Below, one piece after another: positions 5,850 through 48,502 of a stretch of DNA of 48,561 bases. How positions within the stretch are numbered: position 1 is the first letter of the stretch; every line of letters begins with the position of its first letter. The notes under the pieces are model-generated. The model was given only the letters and a program-made list of their open reading frames with translations. It searched no databases and was not told the DNA's origin. The DNA is from a virus, in UHGV virus genome UHGV-0105325. The stretch is one strand, 5' to 3'. The position numbers and the translations under genes were made by a program.

Positions 5850-5886
5850 TGACTAACTCTACACCATCTTGACGTACCCGTCAACA
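5850..5886 (-). promoter_or_regulatory. early promoter with TGACG-N4-CGTCA palindrome (core 5870-5883); -35 TTGACG, 17-bp spacer, -10 TAGAGT
   Basis: Read on the minus strand: TTGACGggtacgtcaagatggtgTAGAGT, then the conserved leader ...atcaacaacaggag and ATG. Confidence 0.7.
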
Positions 5887-5944
5887 ATTGATTGATGATT
5901 TCGTCAAGTGTACACTGTAACGACTAACAACCGGAGAAATAACA

Positions 5945-6319
5945 ATGTCACTCATTAAAACTTTTACCGCTGGCGATATCACCGTGAACGCCGCGATGCC
6001 TTCCGCAATTGAGCAGGATGAACTGTTATCCCTGGTGAGCGCACAGTTTATTGCGCACGCTGCCAATGTTTACAAAAACGGCGGTGAACTCGGTGTCAAA
6101 GATGTAACACTGTTGCTTACCGCTGTACCCCATCATATCAAGCAACGCATTGCTGAGGTGCTCCTGAGCAAAGCGATGACAGCGGGTACCAACACGAAAA
6201 TCACAGTGAATGATTTCCCCGGTAAGATGATGACGCTGAATACTCTGCTGGCCGAATTGTTTCTGTGGGTTTACTCTGATTTTTTCGATTACGTGCAAAA
6301 CGCAAACAAAGACGAGTAA
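5945..6319 (+). CDS. hypothetical protein (possible tail assembly chaperone by position)
   Basis: 124-aa ORF between the tube gene and the tape-measure gene. Confidence 0.5.
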   Translation: MSLIKTFTAGDITVNAAMPSAIEQDELLSLVSAQFIAHAANVYKNGGELGVKDVTLLLTAVPHHIKQRIAEVLLSKAMTAGTNTKITVNDFPGKMMTLNTLLAELFLWVYSDFFDYVQNANKDE

Positions 6320-6505
6320 AAGACACCGGGCGACCCAGCCCGGTCAACTGGTACTTCATGCGGGTTTGCACAGGTATCGAGGGAGTGTGCCCACCTCTTT
6401 GTACATGGGCACAGTTAAAAGATGGTACAATATCGCTTGCTGAAGTCGAACAATTTCACTTTGCGATGGATGAATTGCAGGGTAAGTATATTGAGGCGAT
6501 AAACA

Positions 6506-6802
6506 ATGCAAGAAATTCCCCTAAATAACGGCGCGGCTAACGCCCATCAGACCTTCACGGTCAAGCTGGGTGATAACGTTCTCGACTTTGCGCTGGATTA
6601 CATCAGCTATACCGACAAGCCCGCGTGGACAATGACTGTCTCACAGGATGGTGTTAACTACATCACCGGTGCAATGCTTGTTCCAAACGCTGATGTCAGT
6701 AAAGCATACCGCGCCGGACTGGGTCGCTTCTTCTTTGTGGGTGATGAGGTGACCATTGACAACCTCGGCGTCGATAACCATCTTCTGTGGGTGCCTGAAT
6801 AA
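6506..6802 (+). CDS. hypothetical protein (possible tail assembly chaperone by position)
   Basis: 98-aa ORF ending at the tape-measure start (ATGA-type coupling). Confidence 0.5.
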   Translation: MQEIPLNNGAANAHQTFTVKLGDNVLDFALDYISYTDKPAWTMTVSQDGVNYITGAMLVPNADVSKAYRAGLGRFFFVGDEVTIDNLGVDNHLLWVPE

Positions 6803-8253
6803 TGGCTAATGTGATTACGCAGTTTCTGGTCGGTCTCGGTATCTCTTACGATGGTAAAGGTGCTGAACAGGCTGAAAAAGATATCGACAATCTCGGCAAA
6901 TCGGCAGAGCAAGCCGGTAGTCAGATGGACGATGTCGGCAAGTCCCTCGACAAGGGCGTCAAAACCGGTGTAGAAAATTCAAAATCACGCATTATGAGTC
7001 TGGTCACCACATTCAAAGCTGCCGGACTTGCGATGTCCGGTGTTGCCGCGGGTGTCGGTGCAGCGTGGGCGTTTGAGTCGAAAAAAGCGCAACAGGCTTA
7101 CGACCTAAACAACCAGCTTGTAACTAGTCAGTTCGGTCCAACTGAGGTTTACGGACTTGGCGCATTAGCCGAACAGCGTGGGGGTGACCGGCAGGCAACG
7201 ACAAACAGCCTTTTAAACATTGAGCGTGGGATTAACCGCATTCAGACCGGTGACGTCGGGATGATTCAGCAACTGGCGGTTGCGGGAATCCGTGTCGATA
7301 ATCCCACGGGGCGTACACGCGAGGATATTTACAGTGACATCGCCGGGCAGTTCCAGCGCCTCGATATGACGCGTCAGAGCAACGTAGCGGATATTTTAGG
7401 CCTCGACCCGGCCACCGTCAGAGTATGGCAGGAGTTCGGCGCTACAACGCTGGAAGTGTCAAAAGCCCGTGCCGCTGAAATGGGGTACACTGAACAGCAC
7501 AATGCCGCGCTGAACGCAATCAATCAGACTATGATTGACACTCAACAAAAGTTCGAGAGTCTGGGTAACACCATTGCCGACATGCTCGTACCAGATATTA
7601 CCAGTCTGAGTAATACCATATCCGGTGTCGTAGGTAGACTTGATAACTGGTTGAAAACCAGCTCCTTTGGGAAAGATGTGTCCGAACACGGGATATATAA
7701 GGCATATGAAAATGCAATGCAGTCCATCCCGTGGATTAAGAAAATGGATGACTGGATTAACAACTTGGGTACAAATGCCAATGATGCGACAATTAATAAT
7801 AAATCATCCACTGTTGAAACTCCTGCCTGGGGTGGTACACCGTTCTGGGCAAAGCGGGAGAATTGGGTCAACGATTCTGATAACAGAACGGTAGATGATG
7901 ACACACTCTCCGCATTACGTCGAAATAATTCACTGTATAACCCGGTCAATAACCACATCGTCAATAACACAACGAATACTGAGCAACTCCCACAGCGGGA
8001 GAATTCATCTCCGGTTAACGACGGTTCATACGGTGCCGAAGTGAGTCCGGTGACTGATAACTATGCGCAGCAAAGTCGGCAGATGAGTCGGATTATGGAG
8101 TCCATAAACCGTCCGATTCAACTTAACGGCAATTTCACCACACAGGGCGACGTAATACTGGATGGTAACGCAATTGGTCGTTATACCGTCAACCATCTTG
8201 AGACGCAGGTATATCCGCAGGCAATTGACCAGACCCGGCAAAGGAGTTACTGA
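6802..8253 (+). CDS. tail tape measure protein
   Basis: 483 aa, Ala/Gly/Gln-rich and helical, lying between chaperone-position genes and baseplate genes. Confidence 0.6.
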   Translation: MANVITQFLVGLGISYDGKGAEQAEKDIDNLGKSAEQAGSQMDDVGKSLDKGVKTGVENSKSRIMSLVTTFKAAGLAMSGVAAGVGAAWAFESKKAQQAYDLNNQLVTSQFGPTEVYGLGALAEQRGGDRQATTNSLLNIERGINRIQTGDVGMIQQLAVAGIRVDNPTGRTREDIYSDIAGQFQRLDMTRQSNVADILGLDPATVRVWQEFGATTLEVSKARAAEMGYTEQHNAALNAINQTMIDTQQKFESLGNTIADMLVPDITSLSNTISGVVGRLDNWLKTSSFGKDVSEHGIYKAYENAMQSIPWIKKMDDWINNLGTNANDATINNKSSTVETPAWGGTPFWAKRENWVNDSDNRTVDDDTLSALRRNNSLYNPVNNHIVNNTTNTEQLPQRENSSPVNDGSYGAEVSPVTDNYAQQSRQMSRIMESINRPIQLNGNFTTQGDVILDGNAIGRYTVNHLETQVYPQAIDQTRQRSY

Positions 8254-8255
8254 CA

Positions 8256-10329: not shown

Positions 10330-10352
10330 AAAAAAAGCCCCGGAGACCGGGG
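10330..10352. terminator. A-run + GC hairpin (gccccggagaccggggc); as read it is oriented for the opposite strand
   Basis: A11 followed by an inverted repeat. The U-tract is on the minus strand only, so it may terminate antisense transcription. Confidence 0.4.
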
Positions 10353-10617
10353 CAAACATACAGGAGCACAACAGAGAGGTTATGGTTTACAGGTTAGACG
10401 TCATCTAAACTCTAAACCGTTGTATTGGTTGAACCGCCACGGTGACCAGCCGCATTCGTGCATGCCTGGCTACACATTCCGGCTACCCGCTGATGCGAAG
10501 GAATAGGACACCCCGGACAGCTAAAGACACATGTGCTATATGCCTGTGAATGAATAATTACATTGTTTGACGTGAGTGTCAATAGTATACTTGACATTAT
10601 TTTCACAGGAGGGCGAC

Positions 10618-15780: not shown

Positions 15781-16380
15781 ATGGCTTTAGACCGTAGCAA
15801 CCGCTACCCGGGACGGTTTGAGAATCCCACGACGGAGCAACCCCAGGGTGCATTTAAAAACCGTACATCACCGACAGCAGAAGATGGTTCATATTTTGAA
15901 GCCGATTGGGCTAACGACATGAGCGGGTTCTTTGGTGCTATTCTCTCCAACGCAGGCGTGTCTCCCAATGGCTCCGTGGACACAGCGTCGAGTAGTCAGG
16001 TATACGATGCGCTCAAAACATTATTTCCACTCGCCGCCGGGTTCACCGGCTCACTAAGCTCTTCCGGGTATGTGCAGATTCCGTTGAAAATATCGGGAGC
16101 ATCGCGGATCTTAAAAATTAACTGGGCACCGTGGAGTGGCACCACCGGTTCCACTGATACAAACGGCATCTATGAGACATCGGGCATACCCATTACATGG
16201 GCGTCACCATTCTCTACATCCACATATGGTGTCATAGCATCAGTAAACGATGTGTCCGGTAGCGGACTTCAGGAAATGGTGTGGCGTTCCGGCATGACAC
16301 TGACTGGATGTTCATTATTAGCCTCATGCCGCCAGGCAAGTACAGCGATGAGTGGATTTGTCATCGGTATCGGTTCATAA
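15781..16380 (+). CDS. putative tail fibre / receptor-binding protein
   Basis: 199-aa ORF, Ser/Thr/Gly-rich, last gene of the tail operon. Confidence 0.45.
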   Translation: MALDRSNRYPGRFENPTTEQPQGAFKNRTSPTAEDGSYFEADWANDMSGFFGAILSNAGVSPNGSVDTASSSQVYDALKTLFPLAAGFTGSLSSSGYVQIPLKISGASRILKINWAPWSGTTGSTDTNGIYETSGIPITWASPFSTSTYGVIASVNDVSGSGLQEMVWRSGMTLTGCSLLASCRQASTAMSGFVIGIGS

Positions 16381-16611
16381 GGTTTTACAACCTTCCCACC
16401 AGTTTTGCCACCGGGACACTCTGTCCCGGTCGGCCATCAGAACTTCCCCATTATGTGGAATTACCGTAGCGGCCTTTTCAGGGTCGCCATCGGTTGTCCA
16501 CAATTCACCACTCGGCGTAAGCAAGTCATTAGACGGAGGCGGGCATTTACGCACTTCCTGAGCACACGCAGTTAAAGCAAGTACAGATATCAGCAGGATG
16601 AGTTTTTTCAT
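16375..16611 (-). CDS. o-spanin (Rz1-like outer-membrane lipoprotein)
   Basis: Signal peptide MKKLILLISVLALTAC with lipobox LTAC, Pro-rich mature part, directly after the i-spanin gene. Confidence 0.65.
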   Translation of the reverse strand: MKKLILLISVLALTACAQEVRKCPPPSNDLLTPSGELWTTDGDPEKAATVIPHNGEVLMADRDRVSRWQNWWEGCKTL

Positions 16612-16931
16612 TTTACGGTCGTATCATACAGGTCGAGGATACCGCTATCTTTGACACACTGGGCGGTGGCGGAGTCTTTGATTCGGTCACGGTAGATGGT
16701 GACTTTTTCAACGACTTTTTTGGCCCGGGCTTCTTTCAGTTCCTGTTGCTTTTTCTGCAATTCCACATCGGAGGCGTTGAGTTTTTCCTGCAGCGCGTCA
16801 CGGGCTTCTACGGCCGCCTTATATTCCTTGAAATCGTCCAGTTTGACCGCATTCTTACCCGAAAAATAACCCATAGCGTACACTGCAACCATTATGCTAC
16901 CGATTACCCCGGCGAGTATCACGTTACGCAT
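16608..16931 (-). CDS. i-spanin (Rz-like)
   Basis: N-terminal TM segment followed by a charged coiled-coil; sits between the endolysin and the lipoprotein. Confidence 0.65.
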   Translation of the reverse strand: MRNVILAGVIGSIMVAVYAMGYFSGKNAVKLDDFKEYKAAVEARDALQEKLNASDVELQKKQQELKEARAKKVVEKVTIYRDRIKDSATAQCVKDSGILDLYDTTVK

Positions 16932-16932
16932 A

Positions 16933-17538
16933 TTAGCCTCCTAAATTATATTTACCAGCCTCATGTGGGAGAGTCCCTGGTTTAGTCTCTCCCAGTGTAT
17001 ACAGGCACAAATACTCTTCCTGCTCCCGACGAATTGGCTGCCCGGAACAGTTATTGCTTTTAATGCGGCAGTCTTTACCACCATCGAACACCCAACGAGG
17101 AATCTGTTTGCACGCGTTCTTCCAGTCGCCTTTTTGCAGCAACTTAAAGAATGTTGACCCCTTACATTTAGTAGGTCCAATGTTGTACGGGCAGAACGAT
17201 GCGATACCAACCTGTTGTACCGGGTTCAGTTTTACCGGGATATTGTCACGTACCCATTTGAGTGACTTTTGTGCTTCTTTATCGTTCAGAAGGTCGCATT
17301 GCTTTTCGGTAAGCCGCATACCCTTTGTCACCGGCCTACCATCGATGCGCGTCACACCCCGGCAGATGGTCCAGATGGGAGGATTTGCACTGTCCAGATA
17401 CGCCGTCAGCCTGTTCCCTTCCTTCTCGTTCAGGAACTGATTGAGGATATCCGTCTGCGTGACTACCGCAGTACCCGTACCACCCATTGCAAATGCGGTA
17501 AGAAGGGCGGTCATTTGTTTACTTAAAGGATTTTTCAT
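16933..17538 (-). CDS. SAR-type endolysin (glycoside hydrolase 24 / phage 21 R-like lysozyme)
   Basis: N-terminal weakly hydrophobic Gly/Ala-rich segment ALLTAFAMGGTGTAVV, then the catalytic E...D...T triad context EGNRLTAYLDSANPPIWT. Confidence 0.7.
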   Translation of the reverse strand: MKNPLSKQMTALLTAFAMGGTGTAVVTQTDILNQFLNEKEGNRLTAYLDSANPPIWTICRGVTRIDGRPVTKGMRLTEKQCDLLNDKEAQKSLKWVRDNIPVKLNPVQQVGIASFCPYNIGPTKCKGSTFFKLLQKGDWKNACKQIPRWVFDGGKDCRIKSNNCSGQPIRREQEEYLCLYTLGETKPGTLPHEAGKYNLGG

Positions 17539-17591
17539 TCGGTAACACCTGCTGTACAATTAGGTTTAATCCTAACATACAAGGGCGATAA

Positions 17592-18655: not shown

Positions 18656-18679
18656 CTTCTCTACCCTCTCTGTTGTTGA

Positions 18680-18718
18680 TATGACTAACTCTAAACTACT
18701 TTGACGCGCTCGTCAACG
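18680..18718 (-). promoter_or_regulatory. early promoter with palindrome TGACGcgctCGTCA (18702-18715); -35 TTGACG, -10 TAGAGT
   Basis: Leader is identical to that of the 5850 promoter (tagagttagtcatatcaacaacag). Confidence 0.7.
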
Positions 18719-19289
18719 GTAAAACTAACTTTTCCGCTTCTTTCACGTAATACTCGTAGTCCAGACTACTCCAGTCGAAGTCTTTAGCGTCGGCGCACTC
18801 TGTTACCTTCCATCCGACATACATCCCGGTTTCACGTACTGCATCATGCTTGCTGCGACTCTTCGTGTGGATACGCTCGTCCCACGGTGTACCGATGCTG
18901 TCAAGTTCTCCCGGTTGACCAGTAATCTCACGCATTACCGCGTTGTACACGTCGTCTTTGATACCATTCTTGCGCTTCCATGTACCCGGTACACCGGTTG
19001 GCGGTAACAGTTTGACCAGTGACCCACCGTTACGCGAGATAAACACACGTGTGGTATTCTGCATCTCCTGTTCAGCGCCCCATTCCGGCCAGCGCATAAC
19101 CAGACGTGCAGAACGCGGTACTTTAGCGCGCAACATAAAGTCGAACGGGTCACGATGCTGCGTGATGAACGTGCGGATGTCCTCACCGTATACGAGGGCG
19201 GCTTCGGCAGCGCGGGCAATAATCATTGCCGATGGGTCCTGATGCCACTGGTATTTGTACTCGTAACACCCTTTTCTTTTAATTTTCAT
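18696..19289 (-). CDS. probable C-terminal (thumb) segment of the family-B DNA polymerase; carries a TPWDERIH module
   Basis: Begins KIKRKGCYEYKY (KxY-like) right after the HNH gene that follows the polymerase N-part. Shares a ~45-aa module with ORF 24133-25041. Confidence 0.45.
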   Translation of the reverse strand: MKIKRKGCYEYKYQWHQDPSAMIIARAAEAALVYGEDIRTFITQHRDPFDFMLRAKVPRSARLVMRWPEWGAEQEMQNTTRVFISRNGGSLVKLLPPTGVPGTWKRKNGIKDDVYNAVMREITGQPGELDSIGTPWDERIHTKSRSKHDAVRETGMYVGWKVTECADAKDFDWSSLDYEYYVKEAEKLVLPLTSASK

Positions 19290-19824
19290 ATTTCCATGAC
19301 TCCCGCTTTGCGTGATTGGGGTGATAATTTAAATCGCGCTCAGCTTGCTTGCGAACGGCGATTGCCTCATTCTTATCTCTGAATGTGCCCAAGTGATAAC
19401 GAACCCCTTCATGTGATATACGTACTAACCATCCCGCACCATTTCTTGTAACACCTCTGCACCCGGAGGTGTTATCTTTGCGTTCACCCTGATTCCTGGC
19501 ATTCTCAAAAGCCGTAACAAGACGTAAATTTTCCCAGCGGTTATCCTTTCGATTACCATTGATATGGTCAATTTCACCATTCGGATGTTCACCCGTCATA
19601 TATAACCACACGAGGCGATGTACGAGAAACATCAACCCAAAACAATTCGTCCAGTAATAGCCTCTATTATTACAATCCCTTATTGGTGAATATATTGATT
19701 TGGGTTTACCATAACTATCGTATCTCTTTATTCTTGCGAATTCCCCAGTCGTGGGATTATAAGTGAAATGTTCTTTTAATAACTCCAGAGACATTTCTTC
19801 TCTACATTTCAATTTCCACATCAT
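19279..19824 (-). CDS. HNH homing endonuclease with AP2 DNA-binding domain
   Basis: HNH motif EIDHINGNRKDNRWENLRLVT...N plus AP2 GVTRNGAGWLVRISHEGVRYHLGTF. AT-rich. Confidence 0.75.
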   Translation of the reverse strand: MMWKLKCREEMSLELLKEHFTYNPTTGEFARIKRYDSYGKPKSIYSPIRDCNNRGYYWTNCFGLMFLVHRLVWLYMTGEHPNGEIDHINGNRKDNRWENLRLVTAFENARNQGERKDNTSGCRGVTRNGAGWLVRISHEGVRYHLGTFRDKNEAIAVRKQAERDLNYHPNHAKRESWKYEN

Positions 19825-19879
19825 TGTCTCATACCGTTGCGATTTGTTTATACCATCCTAAATTTTCTTTTGTTCGATG

Positions 19880-21403
19880 TCAACAAATGGTCATTATGTA
19901 ATTGTTCACATCACGCTGATAAAGAGATTTTACTTCGTCCGTCTCAAGTCCCAACATTGTGTCTTTCTCCCATTCCGCACAAATAGATTCAACTAACGAA
20001 TCATATTGTTCGGGGTAGTACATGACGGCCCCGTCAGTATTCGATTGCGGGATAATCATGTCTGGAACTCGCGTTATCAATCTATCAATCAACATTGCCA
20101 AACAAAGTTGCCCCGTAATGGTGATACTCAGAAGACACTTGTGGTCGCAGAATGGGCTGAATTTACTCCCCATGTTCCCGAATGTGCCGTTGAGGGCGAG
20201 TTTCAATGCGGCATCAACTGTTTTATCTCCCGCTCGCTTAGCATCACGGCGACGAATGAACAGTTGTTCGTATACATCACAAAAAGTTTCACTAAGGTGT
20301 TCCGGATAGTACCTGTTCTTTATACTAATGGACGGGTACATGCTTGTAACATCTTTATTTTTCAATAACTTACCGTTGCCGGAATGCACAACGTAGTTCG
20401 GAATACTACTGTGAATACCTCCCAATCCGAACGAATATTCGACACCATCGACCACGACGGTCATATCACTAAACACACCTTTTGTGGTCAGCAATTCGTC
20501 CTGCTGTTTCTTTGTGAGTACAACCCCACGAATGCGTTCCAGAATTTGATTGAACTCCGGTCGTTCGAATTTGATATAAGGGGGAATGCAATCTGCGAGA
20601 GCAATACGTTCACGAATGGTTACCCCGGAGCAATCTACCCCGGCCTTTTCCAGTTCGTGAACGAATATATCTTTGCCGATTTTTGTATCGGCGTGGTTCA
20701 TAAAGTTACGTCCGTATTGCTTTGTCAGTTCCTCGCGGAAATGAATTTTGTCGAGTGAACGTACAAAGAATTTAAGTGTTTCGCGAACGTCGTGCTTGTT
20801 GTATGCGATGAGAATGTCTTTCTGTGTATCGTCCAGCATCATTCCGACCAGGAATGGCAGGTCTTTTACGTTAGGGGACTGCATACCCACTTCCAACGCC
20901 TTCAGACTAGTGCGTCGGGCTTTATTATCGAAGTGGTTTATCTTGTACAGGTCAATCTGCTCGAAAATCTGATCGCGGTCCCATATAATTTCTGGCCACT
21001 GACCTTCGGGCTTAATCTGTGATTGCGCTTTTGCGTAAATCTGTTCCAGCGTACAACCCGGTGCATTGACCACGTAGTGCAGCACCGGATAGTCGAATGC
21101 CAGGTTATTAAATCCAATCCCACGGGCCATACTACGTCCCAGGTTGAACACAAATTCGATTAATTGCGGCTGCTCGTTTTTGCGGTCACTGATTTCGAAG
21201 ATTAACTCCATACCCGTCGCAGCGTGAATAAATGAGGCGGTAAATATATTCGGATATGTCTCGATGTCCCACCCCCAGTCCCGTGGGTCCAGTGGTGCAA
21301 TACTGGAGAACGCCGAATCAGCCCCACAGTGAGGGCAATTGTGGAGGTCAGCGGGATAATTTTTACCGCAAGTTGCATCCTCACATTTCGATAAATAGTG
21401 CAT
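19880..21403 (-). CDS. family-B DNA polymerase, N-terminal exonuclease + palm part (507 aa)
   Basis: N-terminal CxxC zinc finger. Exo I DIET, Exo II NNLAFD, Exo III YNKHD. Motif A DVTSMYPSI, motif B KLALNGTFG, motif C-like NTDG. The ORF ends 55 aa after motif C, i.e. before the expected KxY/thumb. Confidence 0.7.
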   Translation of the reverse strand: MHYLSKCEDATCGKNYPADLHNCPHCGADSAFSSIAPLDPRDWGWDIETYPNIFTASFIHAATGMELIFEISDRKNEQPQLIEFVFNLGRSMARGIGFNNLAFDYPVLHYVVNAPGCTLEQIYAKAQSQIKPEGQWPEIIWDRDQIFEQIDLYKINHFDNKARRTSLKALEVGMQSPNVKDLPFLVGMMLDDTQKDILIAYNKHDVRETLKFFVRSLDKIHFREELTKQYGRNFMNHADTKIGKDIFVHELEKAGVDCSGVTIRERIALADCIPPYIKFERPEFNQILERIRGVVLTKKQQDELLTTKGVFSDMTVVVDGVEYSFGLGGIHSSIPNYVVHSGNGKLLKNKDVTSMYPSISIKNRYYPEHLSETFCDVYEQLFIRRRDAKRAGDKTVDAALKLALNGTFGNMGSKFSPFCDHKCLLSITITGQLCLAMLIDRLITRVPDMIIPQSNTDGAVMYYPEQYDSLVESICAEWEKDTMLGLETDEVKSLYQRDVNNYIMTIC

Positions 21404-21416: not shown

Positions 21417-21443
21417 TGTAAGAAAAGCCCCAGTTAAGGGGCT
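21417..21443 (-). terminator. rho-independent terminator (gcccc agttaa ggggc + U-run on minus strand)
   Basis: Hairpin followed by TTTTCTT on the minus strand, just upstream of the polymerase RBS. Confidence 0.6.
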
Positions 21444-21617
21444 AAACGATAATACTGTCACCTACTTTTAAAGCGAAGGCTTTGTTACGGTCTTTGTACC
21501 ACCTTTCGGTTGTGGATACGTGACCCTAGCAATTATATTCAATTTCAACACGCCACGTCTGATATTCTTCACACCAGACCGGCGTACCGACAGAAGTCAC
21601 GGTGGCGTCCAGACTGT

Positions 21618-21782: not shown

Positions 21783-21901
21783 TTATTAAGCCCTCTCTGG
21801 TTGATGTATTCCCGGCGTTGCTCCTGCACCTGTTTAATAGCCTTTTCCAGTTCGGCTAACTTGTCATCAAACTGTTTTAGTCGTTGGTCTTGGTCGGTCA
21901 T
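21770..21901 (-). CDS. 43-aa coiled-coil micro-protein
   Basis: AGAGGG RBS; sequence MTDQDQRLKQFDDKLAELEKAIKQVQEQRREYINQRG. Its stop overlaps the next start. Confidence 0.35.
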   Translation of the reverse strand: MTDQDQRLKQFDDKLAELEKAIKQVQEQRREYINQRGLNKCSE

Positions 21902-22811: not shown

Positions 22812-22848
22812 ATTTGAATACTACGTTAGTTTGACGGGTACGTCAACA
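22812..22848 (-). promoter_or_regulatory. early promoter with palindrome TGACGggtaCGTCA (22832-22845); -10 TAGTAT
   Basis: Same geometry as the other family members. Confidence 0.65.
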
Positions 22849-25069: not shown

Positions 25070-25106
25070 TGGTGAACTCTATACCACCATGACGCACTCG
25101 TCAACA
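25070..25106 (-). promoter_or_regulatory. leftward early promoter with palindrome TGACGcactCGTCA (25090-25103); -10 TAGAGT
   Basis: Centre of the divergent early control region. Confidence 0.7.
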
Positions 25107-25118: not shown

Positions 25119-25155
25119 TTGACACGGGGAGGGTGGTGCGACATAATGACGCTAT
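25119..25155 (+). promoter_or_regulatory. rightward early promoter TTGACA-17-CATAAT
   Basis: Near-consensus sigma70 hexamers 13 bp to the right of the palindrome. Confidence 0.65.
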
Positions 25156-25181
25156 CGTCAATGACAATGGAGAGTGGAGAG

Positions 25182-25780: not shown

Positions 25781-27516
25781 TGACCCCTGTATTATCACCT
25801 GTCGCTGGTGCGGTCAGTGATGCAACACGTCCAAAGTTACGACCGTATCAGCAGGAATTAAAGAATCAGATTTACAACCACTGGAACGACCATCAACACA
25901 GTAACGTACTGGCGGTACTTCCGACTGGTGCAGGTAAAACAGTATTCTTCTCATCCATCATTGCTGAACATGCGGGAGCAACGTGTGCTGTTGCTCACCG
26001 TCAGGAACTGGTGAGTCAGATTAGTCTTGCGCTGGCACGTAACAAAGTGCGACATCGGATTATCGGCCCAACGAATGTCGTCAAAATGATTGTTCGTCTG
26101 CACATGGAAGAAGTCGGGCACAGTTATTACGACCCGAACAGCCGTCACGCTGTGGCGGGGGTGGATACACTGGTGCGTCGCCGCGACCAGCTTGCTAACT
26201 GGCTACCTACGGTAAAATTGTGGGTCATGGATGAGGCGCACCATGTGCTGCAAGATAATAAATGGGGTAAAGCAGTAAACATGTTCCGCAATGCACGGGG
26301 ACTGGGCGTAACAGCCACTCCATCACGTGCGGACGGTTGTGGGCTGGGTTCACACGCTGATGGAGTTTTTGACAAGATGTTTGTCGGTCCGTCCATGCGT
26401 GACCTGATTAATATGGGCTATTTGACCGATTATAAACTTTACGCGCCACCCAGTTCTTTCCGTCGTGACGCTATTAAAAAGGTCAGCCAGACGACCGGTG
26501 ACTTTATAGCATCAGAGGTAAGTAAAGCGGTCAACGAGTCCAGTCTTGTCGCACATGATGAAAAGCAGGTTGTGGGTGATGTGGTGCGCACATACCAGAA
26601 ATTACTCAACGGTATGCTGACCGTCGTATTTGCGCCGGATGTGGCGACCGCTACAGAGCTGGAAAAACAGTATAACGACGCAGGCATTCCAGCAAAATGT
26701 GTACACGGTGCGATGCCGGATGCAGAACGTATTAACGCTGTACGTAAATTTAAAAATCGTGAATACCTTGTACTGACATCGGTGGCCATTTTCGATGAAG
26801 GTTTTGACTGTCCCGCAATTGAGGCGGTACAGGATGTGTCAGCCACGGAATCATTCGGGCGGTTTGTGCAGCGTGCGGGACGTATGTTGCGTCTGAAAGA
26901 CGGTAAGGATTTTGGGCGTTACGTTGACCATGTGGGTAACATCGAACGTCATGCGGTGCTTGTTGATCACCCGGAAGGAACAAAAATTGAACTGTGTCAC
27001 CGGGAATGGACGCTTGACCGCCGGGAGAAGTCCGGGGGCAAAAGTGAGAAATCGGCAGTACGTGCATGTGCTGCCTGTTCCGGTACATACGAGCGTTATC
27101 TGAAAAAATGCCCATACTGCGGTGAACCAATACCCGAACCAGCAGCAACTCAGCGCAGCAATGTGGAATGGGTGGATGGTGATTTACACGAGCTTGACCC
27201 GGATGTACTGGCACATCTACAGGGTGAAGTGATTGGTGCACGTGAGGACGTCAATCAGTACCGAGATAAGATGATTGGTCACGGTTTACCACCTCATGCT
27301 GTGAAGAGAAACGTTAAATTACATGAAAACCGGCTTGACGCGCTCGTCAAACTGGACCATACTCTTGCTCAGTGGGCCGGGTATCGCCGTGCGGAAGGTC
27401 TGAGCGACAGTGAAATATTTCGCAAGTTTTACCTGACGTACGGCGTGTCATGGGTGGAGGCGCAGGCGCTCAAAGCGGCTGATGCGGATAAATTAAGAGA
27501 GAGGATCGGGTTATGA
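25780..27516 (+). CDS. superfamily-2 DEAD/DEAH-box helicase (ResIII-like)
   Basis: Walker A LPTGAGKT, DEAH box VMDEAHH, motif III TATP. C-terminal CxxC...CxxC zinc ribbon. Confidence 0.7.
   Translation: MTPVLSPVAGAVSDATRPKLRPYQQELKNQIYNHWNDHQHSNVLAVLPTGAGKTVFFSSIIAEHAGATCAVAHRQELVSQISLALARNKVRHRIIGPTNVVKMIVRLHMEEVGHSYYDPNSRHAVAGVDTLVRRRDQLANWLPTVKLWVMDEAHHVLQDNKWGKAVNMFRNARGLGVTATPSRADGCGLGSHADGVFDKMFVGPSMRDLINMGYLTDYKLYAPPSSFRRDAIKKVSQTTGDFIASEVSKAVNESSLVAHDEKQVVGDVVRTYQKLLNGMLTVVFAPDVATATELEKQYNDAGIPAKCVHGAMPDAERINAVRKFKNREYLVLTSVAIFDEGFDCPAIEAVQDVSATESFGRFVQRAGRMLRLKDGKDFGRYVDHVGNIERHAVLVDHPEGTKIELCHREWTLDRREKSGGKSEKSAVRACAACSGTYERYLKKCPYCGEPIPEPAATQRSNVEWVDGDLHELDPDVLAHLQGEVIGAREDVNQYRDKMIGHGLPPHAVKRNVKLHENRLDALVKLDHTLAQWAGYRRAEGLSDSEIFRKFYLTYGVSWVEAQALKAADADKLRERIGL
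27335..27368 (+). promoter_or_regulatory. internal promoter with palindrome (TTGACGcgctCGTCA) inside the helicase 3' end; -10 CATACT
   Basis: Same -35/operator geometry as the intergenic family members. Would drive the genes at 27513-28706. Confidence 0.45.
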
Positions 27517-28706: not shown

Positions 28707-28711
28707 CCAGT

Positions 28712-28745
28712 TGACCACTTCGTCAACCTGTGCCATACTGCAACA
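28712..28745 (+). promoter_or_regulatory. promoter with palindrome variant (TTGACCacttCGTCA); -10 CATACT
   Basis: Immediately upstream of the TetR-like HTH gene. Confidence 0.6.
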
Positions 28746-31458: not shown

Positions 31459-31492
31459 TTGACGAGTCCGTCAAGGTGGGTTATCTTTAACT
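31459..31492 (+). promoter_or_regulatory. promoter with palindrome TGACGagtcCGTCA; -35 TTGACG, -10 TATCTT
   Basis: Same geometry as the family. Drives the acidic-protein operon. Confidence 0.65.
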
Positions 31493-34388: not shown

Positions 34389-34967
34389 TTATCTCCCACA
34401 GTTGCGACATTTGCCATTTGCTACATAGCGTTCTGCAATAATATTACAGTGCTTGCAAGGCTCATACGGAGTGTACCAACGTTTACCGTCAGCGATGGCC
34501 TGCTGGCGCGGTGATTTGATTTTAATGACCCCAACGTGGATTCCTGATTCACTCAGTAACAGGGCGTTTTTCATCGTCTGTAACTGCTCATTCAAAACGG
34601 AAATATTATGCTCAATCATTGCGATGTTCTCACGCAGTGCGTCAACCTCACCAGCAGTGTTAACAATGGCTGGTTTTGGTTTTTTCCATTCCCCCGTCAT
34701 GCGTTGTTCGGTTAAGCAGAAAACACATTTACCAGCAGTGTTACGGACGCCCGGATGTCCACATTCGCTGTTCGGTTTCTTCTGTACCCTCCATGAGCGG
34801 CCATCGCTAAGACCGTCGAGAACTTTCTGATAGAGTTCGTTGCGTGCAGGAAGACCCATGTTTTTCGCTTTCACAAAATCATGGTGGTCATGAAGTGCAC
34901 AAATACTACACAATCCTGTTTCTTTAAATTTTGTAGTGCCGTGACAATTATCTCTGAGGTGAATCAT
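34389..34967 (-). CDS. nuclease-less zinc-ribbon protein (3 Cys4 ribbons separated by a coiled coil)
   Basis: AGGAGAGA RBS. Ribbons CHG..GLCSIC, CGHPG..GKCVFC and CKHC..GKCRNC resemble the repeat unit of ORFs 3444-4892 and 41425-42228. Own TTGACC-18-TATAGT promoter at ~34995-35026. Confidence 0.6.
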   Translation of the reverse strand: MIHLRDNCHGTTKFKETGLCSICALHDHHDFVKAKNMGLPARNELYQKVLDGLSDGRSWRVQKKPNSECGHPGVRNTAGKCVFCLTEQRMTGEWKKPKPAIVNTAGEVDALRENIAMIEHNISVLNEQLQTMKNALLLSESGIHVGVIKIKSPRQQAIADGKRWYTPYEPCKHCNIIAERYVANGKCRNCGR

Positions 34968-35063
34968 GTTTCTCTCCTTTTGTAGAGTATATACTATAAA
35001 ACAATAGAGAATTACGGGTCAATACCTCATTTTACCCCGAAATACCCGAGGTATGGGGGTGGC

Positions 35064-35317
35064 GAATTTACTTTCACAATCATAGGCTTACGCGCATAAC
35101 CGAAAACCCCGTACATTCTTCCCTTCTTCCCTCTTATAAACTATATAAACTATACATTATGTATTATACTACATTTATACTATATATTATATACTCTCTC
35201 TTACTACTAATTACTATTTTATAAGGGTATAAGGGTAATAAGTAGTATAGTACTGAAAGGTAAAGAGTTTTTGATACCCCGTTGACTACCCCGAACGAGT
35301 TTTAACGGGGTATGTGG
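35064..35317. repeat. Copy 2 of the ~255-bp AT-rich duplicated regulatory block, upstream of the terminase/head operon
   Basis: About 93% identical to 98-353, including the hairpin ACCCCGAACGAGTTTtAACGGGGT. Confidence 0.85.
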
Positions 35318-35376
35318 CAATGACGGTACAGTCATGGTAAAATCGTGGCATTAGAGACAATAGCGTGGGGGCCAAC

Positions 35377-39184: not shown

Positions 39185-39220
39185 TGTACACTCTACATCA
39201 TACTGACGGAGCCGTCAAGC
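39185..39220 (-). promoter_or_regulatory. promoter with palindrome TGACGgagcCGTCA (39204-39217); -10 TAGAGT
   Basis: Family geometry. Antisense to the head operon. Confidence 0.65.
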
Positions 39221-39985
39221 ATGTCACGACAAACAGAGCTAAATTATTATCGCCAGCTAAAACAGGTTGCCCAACTTGTTCGTGAGGATGTGGACGCCAA
39301 CATCGTACCACTGGTGAAACAGCTTGCGCCGGAGTACACCGCCGACGGCTGGAGCGATACCATCACCTCGGCGATTAACCAGTTGCTCACACGGTGGCTT
39401 GGTGCGTTTGCGCGTCGTCAGGCTGAGACCATCGCGTCACAGTTTGTACAGACTGCGGCGAAGGATAACGCCCGTTCATTTGCTATCAATCTGTACGGCG
39501 GCGATACACAGTTACAGGAATATCTCAGCGCGGCATCGTATCAGAATGCCAAACTCATTCAGTCTATTCCGACTCAGTATCTGGAGCAGGTGCAGAACAT
39601 TGTCATGACCAATATGCGTAACGGTATGCGCCCCAGTTACATTGAGGAAGCGCTCGTTAAACAATTTGGTATCACGGAACGTCGTGCTAAACTAATTGCC
39701 GCAGACCAGTATGGAAAGATACAGGGTGACATGAATCGTATTCGTCAAGTTAGTTCCGGCATTGAGTATTTCACGTGGGTAACGTCACAGGATGAGCGGG
39801 TACGTCATAGCCATGTGGAGGTCGCCAAACGTGATGTGGGGTATGGTCCGGGCGTATTTCGATGGGATGATTTACCGGTTGTCGATGGTGTGCCGACATT
39901 TCCAGGACAACCGGTGAGGTGTAGGTGTATAGCCCGCGCAACCCCGCGGGCTAAAGTGGAAAGATACATCAATTCGAAGAAATGA
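39221..39985 (+). CDS. head morphogenesis protein (Mu F / SPP1 gp7-like)
   Basis: Start set at MSRQTE, downstream of the promoter element. In the position typical after a portal gene. Confidence 0.5.
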   Translation: MSRQTELNYYRQLKQVAQLVREDVDANIVPLVKQLAPEYTADGWSDTITSAINQLLTRWLGAFARRQAETIASQFVQTAAKDNARSFAINLYGGDTQLQEYLSAASYQNAKLIQSIPTQYLEQVQNIVMTNMRNGMRPSYIEEALVKQFGITERRAKLIAADQYGKIQGDMNRIRQVSSGIEYFTWVTSQDERVRHSHVEVAKRDVGYGPGVFRWDDLPVVDGVPTFPGQPVRCRCIARATPRAKVERYINSKK

Positions 39986-40538
39986 AACGATTACTTCCAT
40001 GATTCTCACTGAATCCATAACGATTCTCAGCAGATTTACGTAAACAACATGCCTCGAAGAAATCGGGAGTAATCCCGAGATGTTTCGTCTTTCCCATTAC
40101 CCCAATTTGGGCAACGTAACGACCATTTTGACAATGTATGATTACACCCGGTATGCCCGTTGCATTGTTCTTACGTCTACGCATGTTCCGACTATTCTCC
40201 AGAGGTGTGGCGTTCCTCAAATTACACAATCTGTTGTCTGTGGGGTCACCATTCACATGATCGATTACCTCTGGTAAAACACCGTAAACATAAAGCCAAA
40301 CGATACGATGAAACATGTAGTCTTTATCGAGAAGTCGAATATATTTATAATATTTACCGTTCCAGTGATTCTTTTTGGTACTTCCAGCCTCTTTACCTGC
40401 ATAACGAGTGTTCCATTTCTTCCAGTCTCTATCGCTGGTGAACATTGAACGAGGTCGGATGTTGTGAGTGAACAAACCGGTCGTTGGGTTGTAAGTCAAA
40501 GTCAACCGTGCAAGTTCGTACAGTTCTTTCTCAGTCAT
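39969..40538 (-). CDS. HNH homing endonuclease with AP2 domain
   Basis: HNH motif VIDHVNGDPTDNRLCNLRNATPLEN plus AP2 GVIIHCQNGRYVAQIGVMGKTKHLGI. AT-rich. Confidence 0.7.
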   Translation of the reverse strand: MTEKELYELARLTLTYNPTTGLFTHNIRPRSMFTSDRDWKKWNTRYAGKEAGSTKKNHWNGKYYKYIRLLDKDYMFHRIVWLYVYGVLPEVIDHVNGDPTDNRLCNLRNATPLENSRNMRRRKNNATGIPGVIIHCQNGRYVAQIGVMGKTKHLGITPDFFEACCLRKSAENRYGFSENHGSNRFISSN

Positions 40539-41173: not shown

Positions 41174-41199
41174 CTCTCAAACCCTCTCTGTTGTTGATG

Positions 41200-41236
41200 A
41201 ACTGAGTATACGTCATCCTTGACGAACTCGTCAACT
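41200..41236 (-). promoter_or_regulatory. promoter with palindrome TGACGaactCGTCA (41220-41233); -10 TATACT (18-bp spacer)
   Basis: Family geometry. Confidence 0.65.
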
Positions 41237-41240: not shown

Positions 41241-41441
41241 TCACTCCTGCGGCGGCTCGGGTAATGGTTGCCAGTGGGTTACAAAGCCGCCATTTTCGCT
41301 TTCAACCCACCACCGGTCGCCATTCCACGAACAGTTCCATTGATAGTGTGATTTCCCCAGGTCATTTTGCTCTTCTACATAGCACCAGTAACGGCCGGCA
41401 TCGCCCGGCATCCGCTCACTACACTTAATCCAGTTTGCCAT
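41241..41441 (-). CDS. DUF551-like small protein
   Basis: Trp-rich; C-terminus HWQPLPEPP is typical of the DUF551 family. Confidence 0.5.
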   Translation of the reverse strand: MANWIKCSERMPGDAGRYWCYVEEQNDLGKSHYQWNCSWNGDRWWVESENGGFVTHWQPLPEPPQE

Positions 41442-42228
41442 ACAATGTCCCCACTCGTTTCAAATCTCGCTGTGCGTGACAGCTGTAATTACCATCGTCC
41501 CATTTTATACCTAAAACATTGAGCGAAAACTTCACAACGTCGTCCAATATGAACCACTCCGTACATCCGTCAAATCCCGAATAGTTGGTGGAATTTACCA
41601 CTGAATGTATCGAGTGCAACGTTTTCTCCAACAATTGTACGAACGCTCCTTCCGCGTTAAGTGTGCCAACCACATCGAAACCGAAGGGTGTTTCACGCCT
41701 TAAAACCGTCAGTCGGTCTTCAAAATTATTCGAGATACCTATCTTTATTGCATTTTCGTCAAACCGTTTCAGAATGTATAGTGTACCCGGTATGGTGCTA
41801 TCGAACCCCTTCCTAGCACATCCCGGACACCTCCTACCCATCATGAATTTGTTGTAGTTTGTGGTTTTCCATTCACCATGTAACGCGCATTTGAGGTGTA
41901 GATAGGTTCTACAACCACGCCACTGTTCCAATTTGACCAATGATGTTAAAGATTTTTCACTTTTAAGAATTCCCTTAACGTTCGAAATAACCTCATCCTG
42001 CGTTAAACGTTTAGTGCTGGAACAGGCGGGACATGTCCGACCATCGTTGATGAACTTGTTGTATGTAGTGCTAAGCCATTCACCGTGTAAATCGCAATTC
42101 ATTTTCAACTTTGTGGATACTCCGCGCCATTCCCCAACAAATCCAACGAACTTGTAAGGTGTTCCCACTGTTCTTTCTCTTAGTTTCTCAATGGCATCCT
42201 TTTCTGGTATTGGAAGTGCCATAATCAC
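41425..42228 (-). CDS. homing-endonuclease-like protein: 2 zinc-ribbon repeats + T5orf172 (GIY-YIG-like) domain
   Basis: Repeat units C.LHGEW...CPxC twice. C-terminal GTLYILKRFDENAIKIGISNNFEDRL matches the T5orf172 core. Confidence 0.6.
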   Translation of the reverse strand: MIMALPIPEKDAIEKLRERTVGTPYKFVGFVGEWRGVSTKLKMNCDLHGEWLSTTYNKFINDGRTCPACSSTKRLTQDEVISNVKGILKSEKSLTSLVKLEQWRGCRTYLHLKCALHGEWKTTNYNKFMMGRRCPGCARKGFDSTIPGTLYILKRFDENAIKIGISNNFEDRLTVLRRETPFGFDVVGTLNAEGAFVQLLEKTLHSIHSVVNSTNYSGFDGCTEWFILDDVVKFSLNVLGIKWDDGNYSCHAQRDLKRVGTLYGKLD

Positions 42229-42871: not shown

Positions 42872-42908
42872 GATTATCACTATGGCATACTCTGACGGAC
42901 TCGTCAAC
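42872..42908 (-). promoter_or_regulatory. promoter with palindrome TGACGgactCGTCA (42892-42905); -10 CATAGT
   Basis: Family geometry. Overlaps the 5' end of the rightward DUF2213-like gene. Confidence 0.6.
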
Positions 42909-44003
42909 ATGCAAATCACCGTAACACACAATGACCGTAAAAGTTTCGCACTGAATTCCCAACGTGTTTACACGGATGAGGGATTCCTGCGTGTGCCGGG
43001 TAAAGCCGCTCGTACTGGTATTCAGGAATATCTCGCTTCGGAACTGGGACTGAAAGACCGCGCACCGAACGACATTATCCGTGTATACCGCCCCGCCGAA
43101 GAAGTGTTTAACGATGCGTCACTTCAGAGCTATCTCGGCGCAGATGTCACGAATAACCATCCTCCCACACTCGTCAATGCTTCCACGTACCGTAATACTT
43201 CCGTTGGTGTTGTGACGAGTGTCGGTCGTCAGGACGGAGATTTCGTCATTGTGGATATGGTTATTAAAGATAAAGACGCGATTAAGGCTGTCGAAACTGG
43301 TAAGTGTGAGTTGTCAGCCGGTTACACGGCGGTGTATGATGACACACCAGGGACAACGCCGGAAGGTGAACCGTATGACTTCCGACAGACCCAGATTAAA
43401 ATTAACCACGTTGCAATTGTTGACCGTGCTCGTGCGGGTGCAATGGCGCGTATCTTCGATAATATGGAGAAAAAACCCATGTATCAAATCACCACTGACA
43501 CCGGGGTAAAAGTCGATGTGGCGGATGCTGTGGTAGTAGACGCGTTCAAACGCTTAGAACAGCGTGTCAGTGACGCAGAAGCCGCCAAAGAAACCGTACA
43601 GGCTCAACTCGACGCAGCACTGGAACAGGTTGCTGACCTGACCACCAAATGCAGCGATGAAGCCCTGAAAGCACGCGTGGAAGCAATTGCACGTGTTACC
43701 ACCTCAGCACGTAAAGTTGCTGGCGATGAATTCACCTGTGACAGCATGGACCCGGTTGCAATCAAACGTGCCGCTCTTGCTGTTAAACGTCCGTCTGTTG
43801 ACTGGGCTGACAAATCTGCCGCCTATGTCGAAGCCGCTTTCGATATGGCCGTGGAAGAACCGGTAAAACCTGTGGTAGACTCACAACTTGAGCAACTGGC
43901 TAAAGATGGTGCTAAAGACATCAAGCAGCCGGTAGCCGACGCAAAACCTGTACTGTCCCGCGCACAAGAAGCACTGCTGCGTCAGACTGGCAAACTTAAA
44001 TAA
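42882..44003 (+). CDS. prohead protease/scaffold-like protein (DUF2213-like)
   Basis: N-terminus ...YTDEGFLRVPGKAARTGIQEY and ELSAGY match DUF2213 signatures. Ala/Glu-rich coiled C-terminus. Start uncertain (42861-42909); no clear RBS. Confidence 0.5.
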   Translation: MAYSDGLVNMQITVTHNDRKSFALNSQRVYTDEGFLRVPGKAARTGIQEYLASELGLKDRAPNDIIRVYRPAEEVFNDASLQSYLGADVTNNHPPTLVNASTYRNTSVGVVTSVGRQDGDFVIVDMVIKDKDAIKAVETGKCELSAGYTAVYDDTPGTTPEGEPYDFRQTQIKINHVAIVDRARAGAMARIFDNMEKKPMYQITTDTGVKVDVADAVVVDAFKRLEQRVSDAEAAKETVQAQLDAALEQVADLTTKCSDEALKARVEAIARVTTSARKVAGDEFTCDSMDPVAIKRAALAVKRPSVDWADKSAAYVEAAFDMAVEEPVKPVVDSQLEQLAKDGAKDIKQPVADAKPVLSRAQEALLRQTGKLK

Positions 44004-47339: not shown

Positions 47340-47348
47340 GGTAATTAA

Positions 47349-47978
47349 ATGTCGGTAACAACTTACGAAGTTCTTTCTGCTAATACAGTTAGCGAACTCG
47401 TTGCGCTCGTCAATGCCGCAACAGGTAAAACGCCACTTGGTGAGATATTCATACAAGGTGGTGCGCCTCGACAGGTGGTTGTCACAGGTAAGCCGGTAAG
47501 CGGGTACATCTCTGACAATTATCGAGCTGTTGTTGGTGTGGATCCCCGGGGTCTGGCTGACGCTGTAATGGCCGTCATGACTAATGAGATTCAGCCATTA
47601 GGTGCACCAATCATCCGCAACAATACAATGATTCAAATGATGGGAACTGTGACCCCTTCAAGTGGCGGCTCTGTGGCGTGGGGTAATATTACCGGGAAAC
47701 CTGCTGTTATCGCCGCGGGTGCGAACGCCACCGAAGCACGTGCCGCAATTGGCGCGGGTACTTCGAGTCTGGTCATTGGTACAACCGCATCAACGGCGAT
47801 GGCTGGTGATAAGTTTACGCAAGGCTCAGCGGTCCCCAATGTCGGATCGCAGACGGTATCGGGAGAGGATGCGGCAGCCGTGGCTACCTCGGCAGCCACG
47901 GCTGTTAACACGGTGGCGACAAAATTAAATAACCTGCTTGCCCAACTGCGTGCCTCTGGCATTATTGCATCGAACTAA
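47349..47978 (+). CDS. hypothetical virion protein (Ala/Gly/Thr-rich)
   Basis: 209-aa ORF, last gene of the head operon before the terminator. Confidence 0.5.
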   Translation: MSVTTYEVLSANTVSELVALVNAATGKTPLGEIFIQGGAPRQVVVTGKPVSGYISDNYRAVVGVDPRGLADAVMAVMTNEIQPLGAPIIRNNTMIQMMGTVTPSSGGSVAWGNITGKPAVIAAGANATEARAAIGAGTSSLVIGTTASTAMAGDKFTQGSAVPNVGSQTVSGEDAAAVATSAATAVNTVATKLNNLLAQLRASGIIASN

Positions 47979-47985
47979 TTAATAT

Positions 47986-48008
47986 GAGCCCCTCACGGGG
48001 CTTTATTC
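47986..48008 (+). terminator. rho-independent terminator agcccctcacggggct + TTTATT
   Basis: Hairpin plus U-rich tract. Confidence 0.7.
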
Positions 48009-48133
48009 ACCAATCCTCCCGGCGTAGTGACGACCGTAATACTTCATGATGACCTTGTCAGCACATAAATAACCTTCATCCTCAACCACGATACCTCTGA
48101 TAATGAAGAAGCTACGATAGTGTTTTGTTCTCA
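48002..48133 (-). CDS. 43-aa micro-protein
   Basis: ATGA-coupled to the AP2 gene stop. Uncertain. Confidence 0.25.
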
Positions 48134-48430
48134 TCGTGACCTCGAATATGGTTCGCGTTTTGGACCTTTCGGTATCTCCTGCGGAGTGAATCCGCGCTCA
48201 CGCCAGAAGTACCACAGTTTTCTTGCCAACAACGCGCGATGTGGAGTATTGAAACAACCGATCGTCAGCGTGACATTCCTGTAAAAGACCACCGCCTCCC
48301 ATTTACCATACCTGTGATGAATCCCCGGAACTCGTGCGAGATGTAACTCACGCGACGCAATCCTGTCACACTTCTTACGCCATTGTTTCGTGGGGACATG
48401 ACGCAGGATATCTTCAACAAGGCTTCCCAT
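48131..48430 (-). CDS. stand-alone AP2-domain DNA-binding protein (no HNH domain)
   Basis: GIHHRYGKWEAVVFYRNVTLTIGCFNTPHRALLARKLWYF is a complete AP2 fold signature. Driven by the promoter at 48465-48502. Confidence 0.55.
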   Translation of the reverse strand: MGSLVEDILRHVPTKQWRKKCDRIASRELHLARVPGIHHRYGKWEAVVFYRNVTLTIGCFNTPHRALLARKLWYFWRERGFTPQEIPKGPKREPYSRSR

Positions 48431-48464
48431 AATTTATAAACCCTCTCTCTCTCCCTTTAATTCG

Positions 48465-48502
48465 TGTACTGAGTGTATCAGTAGTTGACGAATCCGTCAA
48501 TA
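48465..48502 (-). promoter_or_regulatory. promoter with palindrome TGACGaatcCGTCA (48486-48499); -10 TACACT
   Basis: Family geometry, with leader ...aaagggagagagagg. Confidence 0.6.

Follow-up and report, generated by a model that had tools for sequence, protein, structure and literature searches.

A 14-bp dyad in the predicted early promoters of a Jedunavirus genome and its proposed recognition by a phage-encoded mini-TetR protein

The viral genome UHGV-0105325 was analyzed as a stretch of 48,561 bp (the window, which here always means the whole stretch), and a 14-bp dyad, TGACG-N4-CGTCA, was found to recur in it as a built-in part of predicted promoters. The dyad is proposed to be the operator of a 92-amino-acid (aa) protein encoded by the phage itself (28769..29047, plus strand), which consists of a TetR_N helix-turn-helix (HTH) domain and a short helical tail and is called mini-TetR below; a dimer of this protein would repress the early promoters along with its own. 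A probability of roughly 0.6 was assigned to this reading, which draws on a census of the sites, the pattern of constraint on them, Pfam, PDB, AlphaFold2, and Foldseek analyses of the protein, and its phyletic profile.

The window was about 90% identical over long stretches to the Klebsiella phage vB_KleM_KB2 (KB2) and further members of Jedunavirus, a group of myoviruses of about 48 kb, and both its length and its genes agree with those of a complete Jedunavirus genome. Small cassettes on the minus strand interrupt the structural genes, which occupy the plus strand, and a divergent replication region lies at about 18.7-34 kb. The dyad TGACGNNNNCGTCA was present in 12 exact copies, compared with 0.15 expected in the window, and none of 100 shuffled sequences reached this count. 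Ten of the exact copies, together with two one-mismatch copies (10568 and 28712), shared a canonical register, TTGACG-N4-CGTCAA-N7/8-(-10), in which one arm falls in a -35 of the form TTGAC(G/A/C) and the other in the spacer. All 12 combined a TTGACA-like -35 with a TATAAT-like -10 at a spacing within 16-18 bp, the criteria used for a sigma-70 promoter, and at most dyad promoters a ribosome-binding site and a start codon followed about 25-65 nt downstream. Both the promoters and their early timing are predictions from sequence, and no Jedunavirus transcriptome turned up in the literature search. Degenerate copies of the dyad were also found at 5893 and 35321. The palindrome places TTGAC on both strands, but a bidirectional -35 was rejected, as each site has a -10 in one orientation only.

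An earlier note on this sequence had listed 11 dyad promoters, each with a perfect palindrome at -34 to -21. Nine of its 11 coordinates were exact, while the sites it placed at 42892 and 28713 lie at 42893-42906 and 28712-28725, the latter with one mismatch (TGACC ACTT CGTCA). Its list also lacked two exact dyads (25147-25160 and 20023-20036) and the one-mismatch promoter copy at 10568-10581. When the whole sequence was searched, the expected position of -34 to -21 was occupied by ten of the 12 exact hits, but not by those at 25147, which sits at a -10, and 20023, which has no -10. The -10 elements of the canonical sites had the form xAxxxT: the three hexamers named in the earlier note, TAGAGT (four sites), CATACT (two), and TATACT (one), accounted for seven of the 12, and TAGTAT, CATAGT, TACACT, TATCTT, and AATTAT for the other five. 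The interval of 17-18 bp between the two elements held throughout, with 17 bp at every canonical site except 41220 (18 bp). The further proposal that the dyad controls every early unit went too far, since two minus-strand units, the lysis cassette at 16375-17559 and the unit at 34389-34967, are free of it; such control would not be universal, although the dyad still fits as a mark of early units.

Leftward early promoters (minus strand) were predicted at 5856..5884 (dyad 5870-5883; TTGACG GGTA CGTCAA-N7-TAGAGT), 18688..18716 (dyad 18702-18715; TTGACG AGCG CGTCAA-N7-TAGAGT), and 48472..48500 (dyad 48486-48499; -10 TACACT), the last upstream of the gene at 48131-48430. The same strand carries an internal promoter of the leftward replication operon at 22818..22846 (dyad 22832-22845; -10 TAGTAT), upstream of a gene for a Gp2.5-like single-stranded DNA-binding protein, and P_L of the divergent replication control region at 25076..25104 (dyad 25090-25103; -10 TAGAGT). 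On the plus strand, one predicted promoter lies within the 3' end of the helicase gene (27335..27363; dyad 27336-27349; -10 CATACT) and is kept in KB2, Geezett, and the Pantoea phage AAM22. A second is the mini-TetR gene's own (28711..28739; variant dyad 28712-28725; TTGACC ACTT CGTCAA-N7-CATACT), whose TTGACC variant and CATACT -10 are kept in the same three phages, and a third is found past the primase terminator (31459..31487; dyad 31460-31473; -10 TATCTT). Among the structural genes, early promoters on the minus strand were predicted at 39190..39218 (dyad 39204-39217; -10 TAGAGT), heading an antisense cassette, at 41205..41234 (dyad 41220-41233; -10 TATACT), whose cassette includes an HNH endonuclease gene, and at 42879..42907 (dyad 42893-42906; -10 CATAGT), whose cassette has a CapR/T5orf172 endonuclease-like gene. 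Three nucleotides separate the dyad at 39204-39217 from the ATG (39221) of the plus-strand head-morphogenesis gene, and two separate that at 42893-42906 from the ATG (42909) of the protease gene, so that any Shine-Dalgarno sequence of these genes (GGAG or GGA) must be inside the dyad. This layout, TTGACGGAC..GTCAAcATG, as at 39204-39223 and 42893-42911, recurs in the Edwardsiella phage PEi21 and the Vibrio phage 138.

The dyad appeared to be under selection of its own. Over the 12 promoters, the information content was 2.0 bits per position in TTGAC, 1.2 bits at G6, and 0.1-1.1 bits in N4, while the spacer arm CGTCA was invariant in 12 of 12 (2.0 bits per position), which equals the -35 and exceeds the -10 (1.6 bits at A2 and T6). 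No base-specific contacts of sigma-70 are known for the position of the spacer arm, which ranks with the -35 as the most conserved part of these promoters. At orthologous sites in KB2 and Geezett, changes were found at one of 170 arm positions, 17 of 68 N4 positions, and 27 of 473 positions in the 15-nt flanks (Fisher tests, 1.6e-9 for N4 versus arms and 0.003 for flanks versus arms). Frozen symmetric arms around a free center are what contact by a two-fold symmetric protein would predict.

A second register was observed at P_R (25119..25160, plus strand), the promoter of the helicase-to-primase operon. Here the -35 and -10 (TTGACA-17-CATAAT, 25119-25147) are free of the canonical arrangement, and the dyad (25147-25160) begins at the last T of the -10, which places the putative operator over the -10/+1 region and detaches it from the -35. 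This dyad is kept in KB2 and Geezett with a different N4 and unchanged arms. The P_R arrangement is also conserved in AAM22, where a single dyad serves both divergent promoters. Together with the invariant spacer arm and the drifting N4, the second register supports the proposal of the earlier note that the dyad is the site of a dimeric regulator, most likely a repressor acting over the -35 and spacer.

The mini-TetR protein matched the Pfam TetR_N domain (PF00440) over residues 6-52 with 29.9 bits against a cutoff of 24 (E 4.8e-7). All phmmer matches in PDB were TetR-family chains, with RutR not among the nearest relatives. The AlphaFold2 model had a predicted local distance difference test score of 94.4 and consisted of seven short helices. 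The top 50 Foldseek matches in PDB were all TetR-family regulators (EbrR, EilR, AmvR, MphR, and LuxR/HapR among them), with a probability of 1.00 and a query template-modeling (TM) score of 0.5-0.7, and the matches spanned about half of the targets of 170-220 aa (target TM score 0.22-0.37). The C-terminal ligand-binding and dimerization domain is absent, the protein having 92 aa compared with about 180-220 aa in the TetR family.

In PHROGs, mini-TetR belongs to phrog_8723, annotated as "unknown function". A profile search of 1.84 billion representatives recovered 1,067 clusters (50% identity) at E <= 1e-10, and the best 150 of the 1,067 were either about 90-115 aa long or about 162-172 aa with two matched stretches, like a protein of the Acinetobacter phage Scuro. 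By these lengths, mini-TetR represents a distinct short subfamily and is no isolated truncation. The two-stretch forms made up about 40% of the nearest family representatives and could be single-chain "dimers"; the 166-aa protein of Scuro (21424-21924) begins with an additional HTH-like module, which is degenerate. A "tetR" gene has been noted in phages CP-T1, 138, and phiPLPE, with nothing on sites or promoters (Comeau et al., 2012). The literature search, whose coverage left out most subscription journals, returned no description of the dyad or of a role for mini-TetR.

Searches by tblastn with the 92-aa protein identified homologues in 95 phage records, well beyond Jedunavirus; the listings of protein homologues consisted almost entirely of near-identical Jedunavirus proteins. 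The relaxed dyad TGAC-N6-GTCA, with about 0.7 copies expected per genome, was counted 16 times in the window, 17 in KB2, 13 in AAM22, 8 in Vibrio phage 138, 13 in PEi21, 5 in Scuro (all TGACA-N4-TGTCA), and 7 in the Pseudomonas phage MR14, and in all seven genomes the dyads occupied the same promoter register. The Iodobacter phage phiPLPE has six promoters with a quasi-dyad, TTGACG-N4-CGGCAA, and its gp14 is a full-length member of the mini-TetR family (hhalign probability 98.7, E 4.5e-16). Altogether, seven more phage lineages showed the dyad-in-promoter design, all of them with a mini-TetR homologue, and the design is kept between phages whose proteins share only 33-48% identity. In contrast, the related phages ZF40, ECOO78, and Murka have no mini-TetR homologue and zero dyads; ZF40 has the structural module in common with the window and ECOO78 and Murka the helicase and nuclease.

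By tblastn profile, among all the open reading frames (ORFs) of the window, the distribution of mini-TetR alone coincided with that of the dyad: it is encoded in all the genomes with dyads and in none of those free of them. Some of the dyad-free phages have the helicase and nuclease, phiPLPE is without the whole polymerase/helicase/primase module, and Scuro and MR14 are without the structural module. Nine of the 13 phages examined carry a dyad promoter immediately before their mini-TetR gene, with the TTGACC variant arm in Jedunaviruses, AAM22, and Vibrio phage 138 and the CATACT -10 in Jedunaviruses, AAM22, and PEi21. Of the binders named in the earlier note, the truncated TetR-like protein as an autoregulated regulator thus gained support from the co-occurrence and from its own dyad promoter. 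Its two other candidates were rejected, as neither is conserved in dyad-bearing phages: homologues of the winged HTH-phosphoesterase (32882-34006) were found only in Jedunaviruses, and the AP2 protein (48131-48430), which has no Pfam match, was found only in a dyad-free phage. A suggestive co-variation was seen between the recognition helix and the arm bases, in which the helix NHH accompanied TGACG and other helices accompanied TGACA or a degenerate fifth base, in too few lineages for a test.

Among known systems, the closest likeness is to E. coli RutR, a TetR-family protein that binds the consensus TTGACCAnnTGGTCAA (PMC2475637). The RutR box agrees with the phage site TTGACG-N4-CGTCAA in its 16-bp geometry and in its outer half-sites, TTGAC...GTCAA, while its inner bases are CCA/TGG instead of G/C; the dyad is thus of a kind that TetR HTH dimers are known to read. 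Mini-TetR shares the N-terminal three-helix HTH and the predicted fold with TetR repressors, but those have about 190-220 residues, and without their ligand and dimerization domain no inducer control would be expected of mini-TetR. It also differs from TetR and RutR in being phage-encoded and in having about 14 operators, which are built into the -35 and spacer of their targets.

Dispersed operators are known from the immunity repressors P1 C1 and mycobacteriophage L5 gp71 (the "stoperators"), which resemble the proposed system in that one phage regulator has a dozen or more cognate sites genome-wide at or near promoters, its own included. However, these are temperate-phage repressors of other families with asymmetric sites, whereas the phage dyads are symmetric and hold a fixed promoter register. 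Unlike in temperate phages, no recognizable lysogeny genes are evident here, as judged from the annotation of KB2, in which no integrase, transposase, or partition gene is listed, no search having been aimed at them in the window. The phi29 proteins p4 and p6 repress the early A2b and A2c promoters and would have the same job as proposed for mini-TetR, namely that of an early phage protein turning down early sigma-A/sigma-70 promoters as infection proceeds. The phi29 proteins and architecture are unrelated, and there two or three clustered promoters are repressed in a manner coupled to late activation; for mini-TetR, no role in activation is apparent.

The sites, their register, the constraint on them, the fold family of mini-TetR, and its co-occurrence with the dyad were observed, and from these we infer dimerization, binding, the sign of the regulation, and its timing as follows. 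Upon infection, the host sigma-70 RNA polymerase would fire about a dozen strong TTGAC-type promoters, which would drive the two replication operons along with the small antisense cassettes of the structural operons. Mini-TetR, produced from its own dyad promoter, would bind TGACG-N4-CGTCA as a dimer with one HTH per arm. At the 12 canonical promoters, a dimer bound over -34 to -21 would keep sigma region 4 off the -35, while at P_R it would cover the -10/+1 region and exclude the polymerase. The early units would thereby be throttled or shut off jointly, and antisense transcription would be cleared from the path of late plus-strand transcription. At the regulator's own promoter, the conserved and presumably weaker operator (TTGACC arm) would provide negative autoregulation.

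Several observations weigh against this mechanism. The canonical TetR dimerization domain is missing, and the palindrome is the one ground on which dimerization is postulated. If transcription from upstream reads through into the late plus-strand genes at 39221 and 42909, polymerase would have to cross a bound operator, which is a poor fit to a tight repressor. In three homologue-bearing phages, the Shewanella phage SFCi1, Psp6, and R9Y2, no clear dyad or operator could be defined, and the Pseudoalteromonas phage PY6 has a homologue together with a different palindrome, which could be bound by another protein. The co-occurrence is in part confounded by the common ancestry of promoters and gene, and small conserved proteins below the sensitivity of tblastn could conceivably be binders as well.

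The best of the alternatives, though still unlikely, is that the dyad is an operator read by a host transcription factor or by a small unrecognized phage protein, with mini-TetR doing another job. The link between protein and site is not direct, small ORFs would be missed by a tblastn profile, and the hosts all belong to the Proteobacteria, most of them to the gamma class and Iodobacter to the beta class, with a common TTGACA-type -35; SFCi1, Psp6, and R9Y2, which have the protein without an obvious dyad, would also agree with another binder. Against any such binder stands the site that the mini-TetR gene has of its own in nine of 13 phages. A host factor in particular is hard to reconcile with a site that tracks the phage across Klebsiella, Pantoea, Edwardsiella, Vibrio, Acinetobacter, Pseudomonas, and Iodobacter, with arms that are phage-specific (TGACG in Jedunavirus and AAM22, TGACA in Scuro and MR14, and a second arm of CGGCA in phiPLPE), and with the zero dyads of related phages on similar hosts that lack mini-TetR. 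We know of no enterobacterial factor with this consensus. A host CRP or FNR site was rejected, since the invariant arms TGACG/CGTCA differ in arm sequence or spacing from the FNR consensus TTGAT-N4-ATCAA and the CRP consensus TGTGA-N6-TCACA.

It is distinctly unlikely that mini-TetR binds the dyad as an activator or co-factor, or as an immunity-type silencer in a carrier or pseudolysogenic state. Near-consensus -35 elements with 17-bp spacers need no activator, and a site centered near -27.5 is at the position of a repressor and not of a class I or II activator. As a silencer, mini-TetR would be a ligand-free switch that holds the early program off, giving a carrier or pseudolysogenic state and superinfection immunity to phages without integrase, transposase, or partition genes, which we consider improbable. 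Jedunaviruses have been isolated as lytic phages, and the KB2 annotation described above also speaks against immunity; on the other side, the layout of one repressor with an operator at each early promoter is that of dispersed-site immunity repressors. Phage CP-T1, a near relative of Vibrio phage 138, was reported to be temperate without known lysogeny genes (PMC3391216). If the switch existed, it would explain this behavior of CP-T1, and the "strictly lytic" therapeutic Klebsiella Jedunaviruses would carry a latent immunity circuit.

The least probable alternative has no dedicated regulator and treats the dyad either as belonging to a cassette of promoter and leader that duplication or recombination has spread, for which the promoter-stem-loop units of T4-type phages offer a route and with which the four leftward copies that form a 48-nt repeat family including the leader agree, or as acting directly on RNA polymerase or DNA shape; however, outside the arms and the -10 the promoter copies are essentially unrelated, N4 changes fastest while the arms are frozen, the dyad survives the protein divergence given above and occurs at P_R detached from the -35, and the invariance of the arm sequence is explained by nothing but a sequence-specific recognition with two-fold symmetry. 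An RNA or DNA hairpin as the main function was likewise rejected, as stems of 5-6 bp with -4.5 to -6 kcal/mol are weak and the two arms, beyond being complementary, keep a fixed sequence.

Jedunaviruses are widely isolated for use in phage therapy against Klebsiella. If mini-TetR is the repressor of the dyad promoters, one small protein and one 14-bp site would time almost all of their early transcription, and the same control would operate in at least seven other phage lineages. The large family phrog_8723 would receive a testable function, a TetR DNA-binding domain would be seen to work without the ligand-binding and dimerization domain, and the silencing of antisense early cassettes would let the late operons be read. 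The pair could also serve as a compact orthogonal repressor-operator tool, and it would be a candidate cause of the temperate behavior reported for CP-T1. TetR repressors with their operators are already known, and what would be new is a TetR-type repressor and operator without a ligand domain, wired to the whole early program of a phage.

A CA-rich 5' leader, cATATCAACAACAGAGAGG, accompanies some of the dyad promoters. The earlier note had described a conserved leader on the leftward copies; it was found after the dyads at 5870, 18702, 25090, and 41220 (leader at 5838-5856, 18670-18688, 25058-25076, and 41188-41206), but not after all leftward copies, and it also follows the plus-strand dyad at 31460 (31490-31515). 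It recurs in PEi21 as catcaacacaacaacggag and may be a translation enhancer or the site of an RNA-binding protein.

The one-mismatch dyad at 10568-10581 belongs to a probable minus-strand promoter (10554..10582; TTGACA CTCA CGTCAA-N7-AATTAT). The roughly 200 nt downstream contain no convincing ORF, and a transcript would stop at a terminator-like hairpin at 10330-10355. The orthologous site in AAM22 (about 24860) lies between the same tail genes, with no minus-strand gene annotated there. The product of this promoter may be a small RNA.

The dyad-free unit at 34389-34967 (minus strand) encodes a conserved 192-aa protein of unknown function, also present in KB2, Geezett, AAM22, and PEi21, which may be a late regulator. 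Its promoter is a dyad-free TTGACC-18-TATAGT at 35022-34993, divergent from the terS late region. The terS gene is preceded by a promoter-like site, presumably late, at 35314..35343 (plus strand; GTGGCA-18-TAAAAT, extended TG), which has a one-mismatch dyad in its spacer (35321-35334) and is identical in KB2.

Just upstream of the plus-strand late operons that begin at 403 and 35365, a direct repeat of about 270 bp was found at 91-353 and 35056-35317 (76-94% identical). Its core (TATAAACTATATAAACTATAC...) is AT-rich and its end is formed by the hairpin TACCCCGAACGAGTTTyAACGGGGT, and beyond each copy lies a promoter-like site with an extended -10 (TGTGATAAT at 371-379 and TGGTAAAAT at 35335-35343). 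A late-promoter or activator region is one possible role of the repeat, and a pac or ori element another. An orphan exact dyad at 20023..20036, with no -10 on either strand, lies in the N-terminal fragment of the split DNA polymerase gene and may be a chance occurrence. It adjoins TACCCCGAAC (20008-20017, minus strand), the same 10-mer that opens the hairpin of both late-region repeats. As a late motif, this 10-mer was rejected, since its seven copies against 2.9 expected are a weak excess and the exact copies are mostly explained by the 270-bp repeat.

An HNH endonuclease gene at 19279-19824 (Pfam HNH_3, E 1.5e-18) divides the DNA polymerase gene (18696-21403, minus strand) into two parts, 19880-21403 and 18696-19289, while the polymerase gene of KB2 is uninterrupted (2,175 bp). 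Homing-endonuclease-like genes, encoding a DUF723 zinc-finger protein, an HNH_3 protein, and a CapR/T5orf172 protein, were also found in the dyad-driven antisense cassettes at 3444-4892, 39969-40538, and 41425-42228 (minus strand), and selfish elements may therefore be under the control of the common operator as well. A 27-nt direct repeat, ATTTCATTCCGATCAAAAAGTGAACAA, at 48525-48551 and about 28-54, flanks the junction of the window just to the right of the 48486 promoter.

Other palindromes were seen in homologue-bearing phages. GCCA-N6-TGGC in SFCi1 and TTGA-N8-TCAA in Psp6 were scattered in coding sequence, and both were rejected as composition or codon effects. In PY6, five promoters (7108, 8015, 12383, 19993, and 28189) had the form TTGACn-N3-TAGCGC-N4-GCGCTA-CACT, and their 16-bp palindrome TAGCGC-N4-GCGCTA has the same 6-4-6 geometry and lies between the -35 and -10, shifted into the spacer/-10.

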